This document shows, piece by piece, positions 3,487 to 40,849 of a DNA stretch of 64,000 nt. The DNA lies in NCBI RefSeq assembly GCF_964213995.1, contig NC_135811.1:35526001-35590000 (forward strand). The letters run 5' to 3'. The notes under the pieces are model-generated. The model worked only from the letters and a program-made list of their open reading frames with translations, was not told the DNA's origin and did not search any database. The translations under genes were made by a program, and so were the position numbers. The DNA comes from Mustelus asterias (lineage: Eukaryota). Position 1 is the stretch's first letter. The number at the start of each line of letters is the position of its first letter.

Positions 3487-3804
3487 ACCAGTATTAGCCT
3501 CCTGTCTACCATGCCCACCAGGTGCTGAGGCCATCACTTACGCCAAATTTTCCAGTCTCTTGACGACAACACCATTAGGCTCCTCCCTGGGAGCAGCCTG
3601 GGCTCGCTTTACCCCCTCTGGGTCACCATTTAACCTGGCACCGGCCATGCTCCTGCCATAAGTACTGCACCAATGTCTGGGTACTTCACCCACTGGCCAA
3701 TCCTTAATTATGATGTGGAGATGCCGGTGTTGGACTGGGGTAAACACAGTAAGAGGTCTAACAACACCAGGTTAAAGTCCCACAGGTTTATTTGGTAGCA
3801 AATG

Positions 3805-3843
3805 CCACTACCTTTTGGAGCGTGCTGCTCCTTCGTCAGGTGG
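3805..3843 (-). ncRNA. Mutated hammerhead ribozyme (inverted PLE arm)
   Basis: CCAC-CTGACGA-A-GGAGCAGCACGCTCC-AAAA-GGTA-GTGG: GAAA is mutated to AAAA and the AGCT palindrome is broken; predicted inactive. Confidence 0.65.
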
Positions 3844-6138
3844 AGTGGGAGATGTGCTCACAAACAGGGCAGACAGAGACACAAACTCAATTTACAGAAT
3901 AATGATTGGAATGCTAATCAAGCTAATCAATGCTAATACAGCTAATCAAGTCTTAAAGGTACAGACAATGTGAGTGGAGACAGCACAGGTTAAAGAGATG
4001 TGTATTGTCTCCAGACAGGACAGCTAGTGAGATTTTGCAAGTCCAGGCAAGTTGTGGGAGTTACAGATAATGTGACATGAACCCAAGATCCCAGTTGAGG
4101 CCGTCCTCGTGTGTGCGGAACTTGGCTATCAGTTTCTGCGGTGTCGTGAAGGTCGCCTTGGAGAACGCTTACCCGAAGATCAGAGGCTGAATGCCCATGA
4201 CCGGTGAAGTGCTCCCCGGCCTTGAAGAGAACAGTCTTGCCTGGTGATTGTCAAGCGGTGTTTATTCATCCGTTGTCGTAGTGTCTGCATGGTTTCCCCA
4301 ATGTACCATGCCTCGGGACATCCTTTCCTGCAGCGTATCAGGTAGACAATGTTGGCCGAGTTGCAAGTGTATGTAACATGTACCTGGTGGATGGTGTTCT
4401 CACGTGAGATGATCCGGCACATCTTGCCGAGGTTGCTGTGGCAGGGTTGTGTGGTGTCGTGGTCACTGTTCTCCTGAAGGCTGGGTAGTTTGCTGCGGAC
4501 AATGGTCTGTTTGAGGTTATACGGCTGTTTGAAGGCAAGAAGTGGGGGTGTGGGGATGGCCTTGGCAAGATGTTCGTCTTCATCGATGACATGTTGAAGG
4601 CTCCGGAGGAGATGTCGTAGCTTCTCCGCTCCGGGGAAGTACTGGACGACAAAGGGTACTCTGTCCACCATGTCCCGTGTTTGTCTTCTGAGGAGATCGG
4701 TGCGGTTTTTCGCTGTGGCGCATCGGAACTGTTGATCGATGAGTCGAGAGCCATATCCTGTTGTTTCAGTGATTGTTCACCATGCACAGGTTCGAACAAG
4801 ACTTTTTCACCACACAGGACCTTCAACCGATGCTATACACTAGATACATCGATGACATTTTCTTCCTTTGGACACATGGTGAACAATCACTGAAACAACT
4901 ATATGATGACATCAACAAGTTCCATCCCACCATCAGACTCACCATGGACTACTCTCTGGAATTGGTTGCATTCTTGGACACATGCATCTCCATTAAGGAC
5001 GGTCACCTCAGCACCTCACTGTACCGCAAGCCCACGGATAACCTCACGATGCTCCACTTCTCCAGCTTCCACCCTAAACACGTTAAAGAAGCCATCCCCT
5101 ACGGACAAGCCCTCCGTATACATAGGATCTGCTCGGATGAGGAGGGTCATGACAGACACCTCCAGATGCTGAAAGATGCCCTCATAAGAACAGGATATGG
5201 CGCTCGACTCATCGATCGACAGTTCCGATGCGCCACAGCGAAAAACCGCACCGACCTCCTCAGAAGACAAACAGGGACACGGTGGACAGAGTACCCTTTG
5301 TCGTCCAGTACTTCCCCAGAGCGGAGAAGCTACGACATCTCCTCCGGAGCCTTCAACATGTTATTGATGAAGATGAACATCTCGCCAAGGCCATCCCCAC
5401 ACCCCCACTTCTTGTCTTCAAACAGCCGCACAACCTCAAACAGATCATTGTCCGCGGAAAATTACCCAGCCTTCAGGAGAACAGTGACCACGACACCACA
5501 CAACCCTGCCGCAGCAACCTCTGCAAGATGTGCCGGATCATCGACACGGATGGCATCATCTCACGTGAGAACACCATCCACCAGGTACACGGTACATACA
5601 CTTGCAACTCGGCCAACATTGTCTACCTGATACGCTGCAGGAAAAGATGTCCCAAGGCATGGTACATTGGGGAAACCGTGCAGACGCTACGACAATGGAT
5701 GAATGAACACCGCTCGACAATCAACAGGCAAAACTGTTCTCTTCATGTTGGGGAGCACTTCAACGGTCACGGGCATTCACCCTTCGGGTAAGCGTTCTCC
5801 AAGGCGACCTTCACGACACACGGCAGGGTTGCTGAGCAGAAACTGATAGCCAAGTTCCGCACACACGAGGACGGCCTCAACTGGGATCTTGGGTTCATGT
5901 CACACTATCTGTAACCCCCACAACTTGCCTGGACTTGCAAAATCTCACGAGCTGTCCTGTCTGGAGACAATACACATCTCTTTAACCTGTGCTTAATGCT
6001 CTCTCCACTCACATTGTCTGTACCTTTAAGACTTGATTAGCTGTATTAGCATTGACTCGCTTAATTAGCATTCTAATCATTGTTCTGTAAATTGAGTTTG
6101 TGTCTCTGTATGCCCTGTTTGTGAGCACATCTCCCACT

Positions 6139-6177
6139 CTGCCTGACGAAGGAGCAGCACGCTCCGAAAGCTAGTGG
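6139..6177 (+). ncRNA. Minimal type I hammerhead ribozyme in PLE terminal repeat
   Basis: CTGC-CTGACGA-A-GGAGC-AGCAC-GCTCC-GAAA-GCTA-GTGG: core boxes intact, stem II GGAGC/GCTCC, palindromic AGCT in place of stem III, stem I with two G-U pairs. Confidence 0.75.
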
Positions 6178-6556
6178 CATTTGCTACCAAATAAACCTGT
6201 TGGACTTTAACCTGGTGTTGTTAGACTTCTTACAGTCCTTAATTAGCCAGCCAGTGAAAAATTGCATCACTCTGACATTCGCTAGTGTAAGTGGACACTG
6301 AAGCTGCCTCTGGGCCCACCAATCACCGATGCTCAACAAGAACAAAATTCATGCCCTAGAGTTACATCTATAATCTTAGTGAAATCCTAGAAATTTCAGT
6401 GCAGAAGGCTTCCATTTCGCCAATCCTGATGATTTCAGTACTAGCTCAACATCAGCTCCAATCCTACTACTTTTACCAATGTTGCTGTTGATCATATTAG
6501 TTCACACACATTTCGGTCCCAATACACTATATTAATGAGTATATCATTTTTTCGTG

Positions 6557-35930: not shown

Positions 35931-36535
35931 TGGGGCAGATCTTTTCATGCCAGAGTGGCACACATGCCATCAGCCTTATTAGCATTCCCTGCTGCTCAGT
36001 TGCATTTGGAAGTGTAGCAAATTGGCCAGCTCCCACTCTTCAGCCAGCAGAGTTTGGGGGCAGTGATTCATCATCAGGGTGGAGATCTTTGGAAGGCAGA
36101 GAAGAAGATGAATTTCCTAGACTATTTTACGAGGAGCCTGAGTTTGTGTGTGGTGTACATTAGCAATCATTTTCGCTGTCAATCTACTGAATTGACCTTT
36201 ACACTGACTCATAAGTGAACTAGAGTAAATAAAATCAATGCAAGTGCTGCAGCCCTTTGAAAAGCCAGAATTCTCATTGTGTTGATTCAAATCTGTCCTG
36301 AATTTCACCCATTTATACTTGAAAATTGGACACACTGACTCACAATGCTATGGCATGGCAATTTGCAGAATTAAGACGCCTCTCATCTGTTTCGGAAGGC
36401 CTGCTGCTGCCTTACTTCAGGCCTTCCAAGTGGGTCTTGGGCATTAATAGGTGCCTGAGATACCCACTGAATTTTTAGTTGCTGGTCATGCATTTTTCAG
36501 GTAACGGGTAAGTGGTAACAGTTACAAATTACCCC
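35931..36535. mobile_element. GC-rich Harbinger-like non-autonomous element containing a duplicated intronic segment
   Basis: GGGGCAGATCTTT start, AAATTACCCC end; 36153-36281 is similar to 34997-35125. Confidence 0.45.
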
Positions 36536-36885
36536 TAATTCTTTTAAGCCAAGGACTGCGGTTCAGATTGCACATTTTTTCTGAATGGTAAGTTAATATG
36601 TTTAGGAAAGTTAAATTGTTTTTGAAATATAAGCTGTGTGGACCCACAAAGTAAAATTCTGCAGCACTATAAAATATGTTATCTGCTTTTATTTGCACTC
36701 AATGAAAAATCAGTTGTGTTCTCCTAGAGGACTGCTAGTGACGTGCAAGACCAGTAGCATTTTGAACATATGAAAATGATGGGCAGGAAACAACCAACTG
36801 GTCTCCCAAGCCTGCCCACATCATGATGAGTAAGAGTTTTAACAACACCAGGTTAAAGTCCAACAGGTTTATTTGGTAGCAAATG

Positions 36886-36922
36886 CCATTAGCTTTCGGA
36901 GCGCTGCTCCTTCGTCAGATGG
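36886..36922 (-). ncRNA. Minimal type I hammerhead ribozyme (antisense arm)
   Basis: CCAT-CTGACGA-A-GGAGC-AGC-GCTCC-GAAA-GCTA-ATGG on the minus strand. Confidence 0.82.
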
Positions 36923-36948
36923 AGTGGAAATCAGAGCAGATTTCCACT

Positions 36949-36985
36949 CCATCTGACGAAGGAGCAGTGCTCCGAAAGCTAATGG
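36949..36985 (+). ncRNA. Minimal type I hammerhead ribozyme
   Basis: CCAT-CTGACGA-A-GGAGC-AGT-GCTCC-GAAA-GCTA-ATGG; perfect stems I and II; predicted cleavage after A36981. Confidence 0.82.
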
Positions 36986-37250
36986 CATTTGCTACCAAAT
37001 AAACCTGTTGGACTTTAACCTGGTGTTGTTAAAACTCTTACTGTGTTTACCCCAGTCCAATACCGCATCTCCACATCATCACATCATGATGGCCAGACGT
37101 AATTGTTAAAACATTTCTTCACTGCCTGTCACCACGGCACTTACTCCACCTGTCCATAAAGTCATTTTATCCATTAACTACAACTTCTGGTCTGCAGGAT
37201 TGGAGCCCATTCCGAAACTAGTCTTTCACATTTGCACTGATATTAATTCG

Positions 37251-37626
37251 GGGGGAGATGGAGCTATAGTGGTAATATCACTGGATTTCCAGAAGACCAA
37301 TGCTCTTGGGACATGGATTCAAATTTCACCACAATTGGAATTTACATTCAATTAATATATTTGGAATAAAAAGCTATTCTCAGTAATAGTGACCATGCCA
37401 ATTGTTGTAAAAACCCATCTGGCTCACTAATATCCTTTAGGGAAAGAAATCTGCCATCCTTACCTAGGTCTGGCCTACTTGTGACTCCAGATCCGCAGCA
37501 ATGTGGTTAACTCTTAACTGCCCTCTGCCATGGCCTAATAAGCCACTCAGTTCAGGGCAATTAGCGACAAGCAACAAATGCTGGCATTACTGATGGCATC
37601 CTTATTCCATGAAAGGATGAACAAAG
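37251..37626 (+). mobile_element. tRNA-derived SINE, second family
   Basis: Homologous to 35565-35914 (tagggaaagaaatctgccatccttacc, gggcaattag...caaatgctggc). Confidence 0.8.
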
Positions 37627-38433: not shown

Positions 38434-38640
38434 ATTGTCTAAACTAAATGGCCTCAGGCAACATATGTTATTCCTGTCACAGAACGAGAAATCTTTACAT
38501 AAAGATTAACTCTGGAGACAGGGACAGCTCAGGATCCATTGTTTTCAGTTGTGGAAATAACTTCAGCACTAATGTCTGTCCAAGACAGACATAGTAAGAA
38601 GTCGAACAACACCAGGTTAAAGTCCAACAGGTAGCAAAAG

Positions 38641-38679
38641 CCACTAGCTTTCAGAACAGGCTGTCCCTTCGTCAGGTAG
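38641..38679 (-). ncRNA. Minimal type I hammerhead ribozyme (antisense arm)
   Basis: CTAC-CTGACGA-A-GGGAC-AGCCT-GTTCT-GAAA-GCTA-GTGG on the minus strand. Confidence 0.7.
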
Positions 38680-38945
38680 GTGGGAGTTCTGATCACAAAC
38701 AGGGCACATGACCATCTCCCATAAACCTACTGACAGGACTTTTAACCTCTTGGACCAAAGCATGCTGGTATTGACTTTTGAACAGGTGCCAGGACCTGAA
38801 TGGGTACTTGCAAGCCTTGAACAGATTGGGCAGTGGCACACTGTGGCCTGTAGTGCGCAAAGGTAACACAGAGGTAAATCTGTAGGCACTGGAGCACTTG
38901 AAGAGAGTAACCATCATGTGCCCTGTTTGTGATCAGAACTCCCAC

Positions 38946-38984
38946 CAACCTGACGAAGGGACAGCCTGTTCCGAAAGCTAGTGG
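38946..38984 (+). ncRNA. Minimal type I hammerhead ribozyme, variant stem II
   Basis: CAAC-CTGACGA-A-GGGAC-AGCCT-GTTCC-GAAA-GCTA-GTGG; one mismatch in stem I. Confidence 0.75.
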
Positions 38985-40849
38985 CTTTTGCTACCAAATA
39001 AACCTGTTGGACTTTAACCTGGTGTTGTGAGACTTCTTACTGTGTTTACCCCAGTCCAACACTGGCATCTCCACATCAAGACAGACATGACATGCAAGCC
39101 AAAAGTGGGTGTGAAGCACCAATCATCTAGTAGGATGTCCTCAGGAGAAGTGTTTGTGATATTGTTTACTAAAACAAACCGTTTGACTCAGGTCTGCACT
39201 GTATACGCTTAGCATCCAAGAATCATTTTGACCCGATAATCGCTGTCGAAAGCCCTACTTCAGAAGCCATTTTGTGAATTCTAAAGACCCCTTTTCCCAG
39301 TGATGGTAAAAGCCTACAGTTTCCTGGCTCTGATCTGTGCCCTTTTCCAAAAGTAAGAAACACAGAAGCTAACTTCCAGTCTAAGGAAATTATGTCTGAC
39401 TCGAAGATATGGACAGGTGTCTTACAGAGCACATGTCCCATCCCGTCCATTGATCACCCTTGGATGGCTATGATACTGGAGCTTTTTCGATTTTGTTAAT
39501 CTATCTAAATAACTATCTATTTTAGTATTAATAATGCTAATTATTTCTGACTACCCCAATCTGGAGCATAAGTATCAAGTAGTGCAGGATTTTGGATCCA
39601 AGGCTGGGACTCTGCTTTTCTGGATTTTGACACCACATAGGATGTTGAACAAGCTGATCAATTAGTGGCCAGGCACCCAATTAAGGATGAAGCAGGCAGA
39701 ATCATCTGACTCTTCTGCCTGCCTAAGAGCCCCTGGCCTACATTTACTATGTGAGCAGCTGCTCTTTATTGCTACTTATCTCCATATCATAAAGCTCAGC
39801 CCCCATCTTCAACCTTGTCCTCCCTTGCTTCCAGAAGCAAGATCACAGCCACTTGGATCCTTGCTATGCACCCTGTAGGGTTACTCTCTTCAAGTGTTCC
39901 AGTGCCTACAGATTTACCTCTGTGTTACCTTTGCACACTACAGACTACAGTGTGCCACAACCCAAGCTGTTCAAGGCTTGCAAGTACCCATTCAGGTCCT
40001 GGCACCTGTTCAAAAGTCAATACCAGCATGCATTGGTCCAAGAGGTTAAAAGTCCTGTCAGTAGGTTTATGGGAGATGGTCATTTGGCAGCTTCACAATC
40101 TGAGAATCAGTTTGAATCTGCCCGACAGTATCTTCTAGTGACCTTATCGTATCCTTAATGCTCTTGACTTCTGAAGTTACTTAACAATCAATGTTACTAT
40201 TACGGCTACTGTTACACATTATCTTCTTTCTGAGATATCTCTCGGCTAATTTTATGGCTGTTTTTGTATTCCTTAATTGCAATGCAATATCCTCATGCGA
40301 ATTAAGTGCCTTAAGGATGTAGAATGCCTTCTGTCCTGGGAAAAAGTAACTTAGTAACTTGTATCAGAATGATGGGGATAAAACAGGTGATGTGAAAAGC
40401 GACAAAACCTCGGATGAAGAAAATTCTTAGACATTGATAGGATGAAGAAATTGCAGAGGTAAAAGGGTAGACAAAATCACAGAGAGACTTTTAATAGGAA
40501 AGGAGGTGACTCTTGAATGCGTAGAAGCAAGAAGATGGTGAGCACAGTATAAAAGAAGCTAGACTAGAACTTTGGAAGTATCGAGTCGTCAGGATAAATG
40601 GAGGCTGGTGTCTCTTTTTGTGTTCATTTCAACTGCAAAATTGTGAAAGAGCCAGAACAAGTAATACTCGTACCACTGCCAAATAAAAATTACTGTGAAA
40701 TGTTATTATGCCGTGACAAATTAGCTGGGGGTGACAAATTTTACTGTCTTCTCCATCCATACTGTGCAGCAGTGAGACTGCAGAAGAGCTAGCTGTCCTG
40801 ATTAGCGAAGGAGCTTCATAAAATTTTATGTTGTTATTTTTTTTTCCAG

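Follow-up and report, generated by a model that had tools for sequence, protein, structure and literature searches.

The 64-kb stretch of the Mustelus asterias genome analysed here (64,000 nucleotides, hereafter the window) contains a 251-bp insertion made of two nearly perfect inverted arms followed, on one side only, by a short unpaired tail (Table 1). The arms, 99% complementary over 104 nt each and 6 nt apart, differ solely at a CpG-type C>T at 36968; arms and loop make up 214 bp of hairpin, the tail adds 37 bp, and the whole is enclosed by the 12-bp target-site duplication (TSD) CACATCATGATG. A preliminary description of this DNA had placed the arms, their one mismatch, the loop AGAGCA, the tail and the duplication correctly, but its term "pure hairpin" holds only for the 214 bp, as the other 37 bp are the tail of a Penelope-like element (PLE). 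The loop is no special sequence: its six bases continue the templated terminal repeat upstream beyond the right arm, and the head-to-head junction lies at 36932/36933. Each strand carries the letters of a hammerhead ribozyme core (CCAT-CTGACGA-A-GGAGC/AGT/GCTCC-GAAA-GCTA-ATGG on the plus strand and its mirror on the minus strand), whose predicted cut positions were assigned by assuming the standard hammerhead numbering. The core letters are indeed present in both polarities, as claimed before, but "intact" overstates the case, these motifs being minimal and devoid of helix III. A scan of the 64-kb window with Rfam at gathering thresholds yielded 0 matches. The 251-bp element contains no ORF remnant and is very short in comparison with typical described PLE copies.

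Table 1. Features of the 251-bp element and of its two sister insertions in the window (window positions).
Feature	Position	Strand	Basis or remark
Sister insertion, 2.5-kb palindrome, each arm with RT/GIY-YIG pieces	3710..6236	-	One-tail layout, 10-bp TSD
TSD, left copy, 12 bp	36817..36828	+	Empty site in related species; median TSD of the blind sample 12 bp (n=44)
Left arm: PLE terminal repeat, inverted, tail-less	36829..36932	-	Outer end = internal start site; cDNA probably primed by the top target strand
Minimal type I hammerhead, minus copy	36886..36922	-	Mirror of the plus copy; predicted cut 36890/36889
"Loop", six more templated right-arm bases	36933..36938	+	Sequence stands upstream of the arm in longer copies
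Right arm: PLE terminal repeat, sense copy	36939..37042	+	Arm comparison and full-length copies
Minimal type I hammerhead, plus copy	36949..36985	+	Predicted cut 36981/36982; architecture as in the accessible text of PMC4209133
PLE tail, 37 nt	37043..37079	+	Ends at the first in-frame ATG of the ORF in full-length copies (L227)
TSD, right copy, 12 bp	37080..37091	+	Empty site in related species
Sister insertion, 490 bp, non-PLE centre	38589..39078	+	One-tail layout, 12-bp TSD

Some local details deserve mention. The last nine bases of the element (37071-37079) are identical to the start of the target site (36814-36828), the TSD opening with the same eight bases, and this match between element end and target-site start leaves a short stretch directly repeated where element and target meet on the right. 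Compared with the tail common in the family, that of the element has two CpG transitions and one deleted base, three differences as against one mismatch in the 208 arm bases. Another high-copy repeat starts downstream, at 37232-37500, where depth climbs steeply; we take it to resemble a shark SINE.

Judged by its sequence, the 251-bp element consists of the terminal repeat of an abundant PLE, present twice in head-to-head orientation, in agreement with the origin from PLEs with minimal type I hammerheads proposed earlier. Eight loci chosen for their long open frames (L224-L231) carry the same terminal repeat around frames of 761-944 aa. One of these frames, P0001, contains a reverse transcriptase domain (Pfam RVT_1, E 6.9e-10) and a DKG motif; its first roughly 65 residues derive from the inverted arm. 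Inspection by eye of the same frame revealed a CX4CxxC linker and, accompanied by two cysteines, a YIG motif. In the accessible text of PMC8557442, a CX2-5CxxC linker upstream of GIY-YIG marks the Neptune/Nematis elements and is absent in Penelope and Poseidon. By its linker motif, the parent PLE is thus a putative EN+ element of the Neptune/Nematis type; the Poseidon clade, also considered, was dropped given the CX4CxxC linker. An ORF fragment of the window has a weak GIY-YIG match, under the Pfam cut-off (E 8.4e-4), and two of the three window ORF fragments have no Pfam match; a 176-aa ORF piece yields 26,116 first-look candidates. Stem I of the hammerhead covaries among subfamilies of the terminal repeat (CCAT/ATGG vs CCAC/GTGG).

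Both sister insertions in the window (Table 1) share their outer ends with the 251-bp element. In the longer one, at the central junction near 4790, a short snap-back at a CATG palindrome precedes a jump through microhomology; in the shorter one, ~210 bp of non-PLE DNA (38707-38917), possibly captured sequence, lie between the arms. Elsewhere, a near-intact PLE adjoins a 3-kb short-period tandem array (L224:104-3255), and beyond the PLE at least eight pieces of the terminal repeat lie tangled in either orientation (L224:6300-8150).

In a related species, one contig (run X4, record 17) spans window positions 36450-36828 and resumes at 37100, with nine letters in between, compared with the eight expected between the flanks of an empty site at this locus. 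The 12-bp duplication is therefore a true TSD, as had been supposed, and the insertion postdates the split from that species, since its contig has the empty site. The flanks of the two species differ at 24 of about 705 letters (~3.4%), and the earlier wording "very recent insertion" stands only in the sense that the event is younger than this divergence. Two samples of the organism from which the window comes (X1, X3) contain the right junction, and the terminal repeat is also found in runs labelled shark metagenome; none of the 23 runs listed as carrying it is recorded as RNA, which counts neither for nor against its expression.

Two origins had been proposed for such an element: an extreme truncation left by PLE integration, or a self-standing non-autonomous MITE-like element carrying ribozymes in both polarities, in a layout recalling viroid-like rod RNAs. 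The fold-back comparison suggested at the time has now been made. A DNA search returned 1,067 candidates and 40 of these were scored; among the 29 of the top 30 loci that could be parsed, the loop, the outer ends and the TSD all vary. The exact junction occurs in only 2 copies in the 3.68-Gb (3.7 Gb) genome, and the second, L008, most likely arose separately, because its ends are different and a diagnostic base differs in both arms. Junctions within 30 nt of that of the 251-bp element were found in 346 hairpins, and about 36 distinct junctions were counted by eye among the first 50 of them listed; two nearby types recur, 7 times each, one at a 4-nt palindrome and the other a 1-nt join. Such recurrence might be expected of an element that spreads by itself, but junctions of these two kinds can also recur by chance repair. 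L002 and L003 (C338), two hairpin copies 228 kb apart with identical flanks, represent a segmental or assembly duplication, not transposition.

Because similarity searches favour look-alikes, we also sampled blindly seven blocks of 200 kb plus the window (1.464 Mb in all). This sample contains 120 element ends, and 90 of these form 45 inverted pairs that face outward. One tailed and one tail-less end are combined in 44 of the 45 pairs; the pair left out of the 44 is a tail-tail one (4,870 bp, 16% PLE). Tail-less ends fall at query positions 100-112 and tailed ends at 136-141, and a TSD-like match of at least 7 bp (median 12 bp) accompanies 41 of the 44 copies. Palindrome sizes form a continuum from 98 to 2,527 bp, with a median of 234 bp; 33 copies are at most 300 bp long and 26 are shorter than the 251-bp element, for which "extreme" truncation is consequently a misnomer. 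A strict pattern recognises the hammerhead core on both arms in 9 copies, on one arm in 18 and on neither in 17, and the four copies both short and double-cored correspond to roughly 10^4 in the whole genome, a figure that derives from a count of four. Extrapolation of the 44 palindromes in 1.464 Mb gives about 1.1 x 10^5 palindromic insertions genome-wide. Figures on size, TSD and concordance of the arms come from the blind set only, owing to mis-pairing of neighbours in some of the other rows. The 251-bp element is a typical member of its family, and there is no propagating family with its junction.

Secondary structure prediction bears on the same question. Stem I/II pairing probability is 0.000 for the whole hairpin transcript on both strands, and also for a plus-strand prefix ending just past the motif, compared with 0.64-0.82 for the isolated right arm; whichever strand is transcribed, the perfect antisense of the hammerhead precedes the hammerhead itself. 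Both ribozymes are thus predicted to be buried in the duplex and the product to be inert as a ribozyme. In the accessible text of Cervera and de la Peña (PMC4209133), minimal PLE hammerheads have no activity as monomers and low activity as dimers, the authors state that there is no evidence of their cleavage in vivo, and dual motifs on opposite strands about 100-700 bp apart are regarded as probable truncated PLEs. The presence of a hammerhead on each strand follows from the geometry of the inversion. The core letters are nevertheless complete on both strands, and the hairpin transcript would contain the cis sites for mobilisation. A MITE-like family, however, should have many copies of one junction and one length, in place of two exact copies of apparently separate origin within a continuum of sizes, and a retrozyme should have a foldable ribozyme in each polarity, in place of the null pairing predicted here. 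The junction count has largely refuted the MITE-like or viroid-like reading, in which the element would propagate as a rod RNA, its ribozymes active on either strand; we consider this reading highly improbable, and the 251-bp product shows no sign of onward copying.

The element is almost certainly a by-product of PLE integration, by one of two routes. The first, which we hold to be the probable one from the analysis of the copies, is that reverse transcription started from each of the two nicked target strands as primer and that the two truncated cDNAs were joined, leaving a short non-coding head-to-head insertion. A GIY-YIG nuclease would nick both strands about 12 nt apart, as the length of the TSD suggests. 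One of the resulting 3' ends likely primes at the end of the tail and the other at an internal site 37 nt upstream, both on the sense RNA; the two classes of ends are observed in the copies, and their priming would be as in the in vitro reactions of an anole PLE. Both cDNAs would then have stopped after about 105-145 nt, in this case just beyond the hammerhead, and since both arms read through the ribozyme, the 251-bp element came from uncut RNA. In many sister copies the cDNAs would instead stop at the predicted ribozyme cut, where arm ends accumulate (see below). Finally, the cDNA 3' ends were likely joined through microhomology or snap-back repair, consistent with the variable junctions.

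In the accessible text of Frangieh 2024 (PMC11167929), the protein of a PLE nicks the two target strands and extends each of them, reverse transcription starts at two RNA sites bounding the tail, a dimer is predicted, and uncut RNA is the main substrate, with no RNA-seq reads at the cut site. Some observations count against the two-primer route. Thirty of the 120 blind-sampled ends have no partner within 7 kb, and microhomology of 2-5 nt at both target junctions is frequent in the sister copies, whereas the anole enzyme primes without homology.

The second route requires a single target-primed cDNA that stopped, folded back and served as its own template until close to its start, so that the tail remained single; it includes the self-priming model for Adineta PLEs. 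Such a snap-back agrees with the near-identical arms of one subfamily and the longer right arm in the 251-bp element, and short snap-back copies, together with microhomology pieces, occur at many junctions of sister copies. Head-to-head palindromes have indeed been read as the result of self-priming, under an antisense template hypothesis (Arkhipova 2013, PMC3846280, accessible text). However, either arm may be the longer one (1359 vs 569, 647 vs 25, 282 vs 74, 49 vs 93), and in copies with a longer tail-less arm both arms contain private sequence, so that neither can be a plain copy of the other. Arms of different subfamilies were moreover found inside one TSD at L080 (C2:80093658; C2:93658), at L146 (C14:40150254; C14:150254) and in the 247-bp L021. 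A snap-back can produce neither a tail-less arm longer than the tailed one nor mixed-subfamily arms, and its published form, as accessible to us, relies on an antisense template, in contrast with the accumulation of arm ends at a sense-strand ribozyme site. We consequently regard it as unlikely for the element, and favour priming from both target strands. Of three automatic flags for discordant arms, two (L021 at 1,649 bp and L190) turned out on inspection to be mis-pairings of neighbouring elements and were discarded. Among 26 scorable blind-sampled copies, 25 have arms of the same subfamily, compared with 35% expected by chance, which implies that the two cDNAs usually come from one source and that two unrelated RNAs are the exception.

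Long palindromes are unstable, and a short hairpin could also result from a longer palindromic insertion that later collapsed by deletion, its arms being kept alike by gene conversion. The three differences of the tail, against one between the arms, would fit such a history. Conversion, invoked earlier for the near-identity of the arms, does not emerge from the comparison of sizes, as elements below 300 bp are no less diverged (4.6%, 112 of 2,461 columns) than longer ones (3.9%, 74 of 1,906) in the blind set pooled with 15 subfamily rows, which may include mis-paired rows. Moreover, junction ends track the ribozyme site, unlike those expected of DNA deletion, and one arm mismatch needs no conversion because the insertion postdates a split of ~3.4% divergence. 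Collapse followed by conversion therefore seems scarcely credible.

An unexpected pattern among the sister copies concerns the ribozyme itself. Genome-wide, 4,356 hairpins have their junction near the 3' side of the ribozyme. For one subfamily, apparent arm ends whose partner arm is no more than 30 nt away number 1,002 at the predicted cut, 203 at +1 and 194 at +2; a further 185 lie at -1, where two of three letters were probed (about 278 when scaled) and where another subfamily inflates the number. By eye, the first 100 cut-site ends listed continue with a T-run (28), C (36), G (23) or another T (13). The 28 T-run continuations are explicable by 1-nt microhomology, and without this class the excess at the cut site falls from about five-fold to about 3.5-fold; the 36 C are templated by no variant. 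Also by eye, the stop seems to shift along with the cut site between subfamilies having it 6 or 8 nt from the anchor. In the subfamily of the 251-bp element the counts are 240 vs 105, a weaker excess that is confounded by a CATG palindrome and by the omission of ends followed by T. Among the joints listed for run X1, the best-supported one is at the cut site on both arms.

The simplest reading of this pile-up is run-off of reverse transcriptase from the 5' end of a cleaved sense RNA, with addition of a C; pausing of the enzyme at a folded hammerhead core is the alternative. Pile-up and mixed-subfamily arms together likely constitute fossil evidence of cleavage in vivo and of integration from two templates. 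On a broader scale, we lean towards the idea that the ~10^5 palindromes record the PLE mechanism, in which a dimer would prime both strands on sense RNA, sometimes on two transcripts, and RNA cleaved in the germline would serve as template, its cDNAs ending right at the cut and often acquiring an additional C. We found no report of a two-primer PLE model or of cut-site truncation in a literature search covering mostly the main text of freely accessible papers.

The layout of the 251-bp element is already published; it is known in kind and ordinary, and the element, one among about 10^5 similar insertions, has little weight of its own. The new part is the statistics of the sister copies, namely the cut-site pile-up and the mixed-subfamily arms. 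In the accessible text of the papers cited, both the origin of inverted repeats with a one-sided tail and in vivo cleavage by minimal hammerheads are open questions, which the five-fold cut-site excess and the mixed-subfamily arms make testable. If our interpretation is right, the palindromes would provide genome-scale evidence of in vivo activity for a class of ribozymes with almost no activity in vitro, and their fossil record would explain the inverted-repeat-plus-tail structure. In PLE-rich genomes, pairs of hammerheads on opposite strands should not be taken for viroid-like elements.

Several known systems resemble the 251-bp element in part. In L1 twin priming, both target strands prime cDNA synthesis and generate an inversion joined at microhomology; there the second priming site is far upstream in the same RNA and the inversion lacks duplication, whereas here the two starts are 37 nt apart and produce a palindrome. 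Non-LTR retrozymes and hammerhead viroids share with the element its small size, the lack of coding capacity, the type I hammerhead and the predicted self-paired RNA. Retrozymes, however, as described in the accessible text of Cervera 2020 (PMC7229834), consist of direct tandem repeats with canonical hammerheads and yield circular RNAs, unlike the single perfect inverted repeat found here, with its minimal, buried hammerheads and without a shared junction. The minimal PLE hammerheads of Cervera and de la Peña 2014 (PMC4209133, accessible text) are alike in their 4-bp helix I, the bulged base before helix II, the absence of helix III and the palindromic 15.2-16.2; the pile-up of arm ends at the predicted cut site is the difference here. 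The Anolis carolinensis Poseidon element, in the accessible text of PMC11167929, likewise has both strands extended from two internal RT starts bounding the tail, together with a protein-assisted hammerhead and a predicted dimer. Its start sites, however, are about 115 nt inside the ORF, whereas here they stand just upstream of the first ATG, and its Poseidon affiliation, in contrast with the Neptune/Nematis-type linker found here, counts against the transfer of the in vitro data. The closest relatives are the EN+ PLEs (Arkhipova 2013, PMC3846280; Craig 2021, PMC8557442; Schostak 2008, PMC2377424), which, in the accessible text of these papers, carry an inverted 5'-truncated copy head-to-head with the terminal repeat, a 30-40-nt tail at one end, a TSD and a hammerhead in the repeat, with inverted repeats as variable in size as here. 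Compared with those descriptions, what distinguishes the present genome is the presence of about 10^5 palindromes in which the inverted form is the norm.
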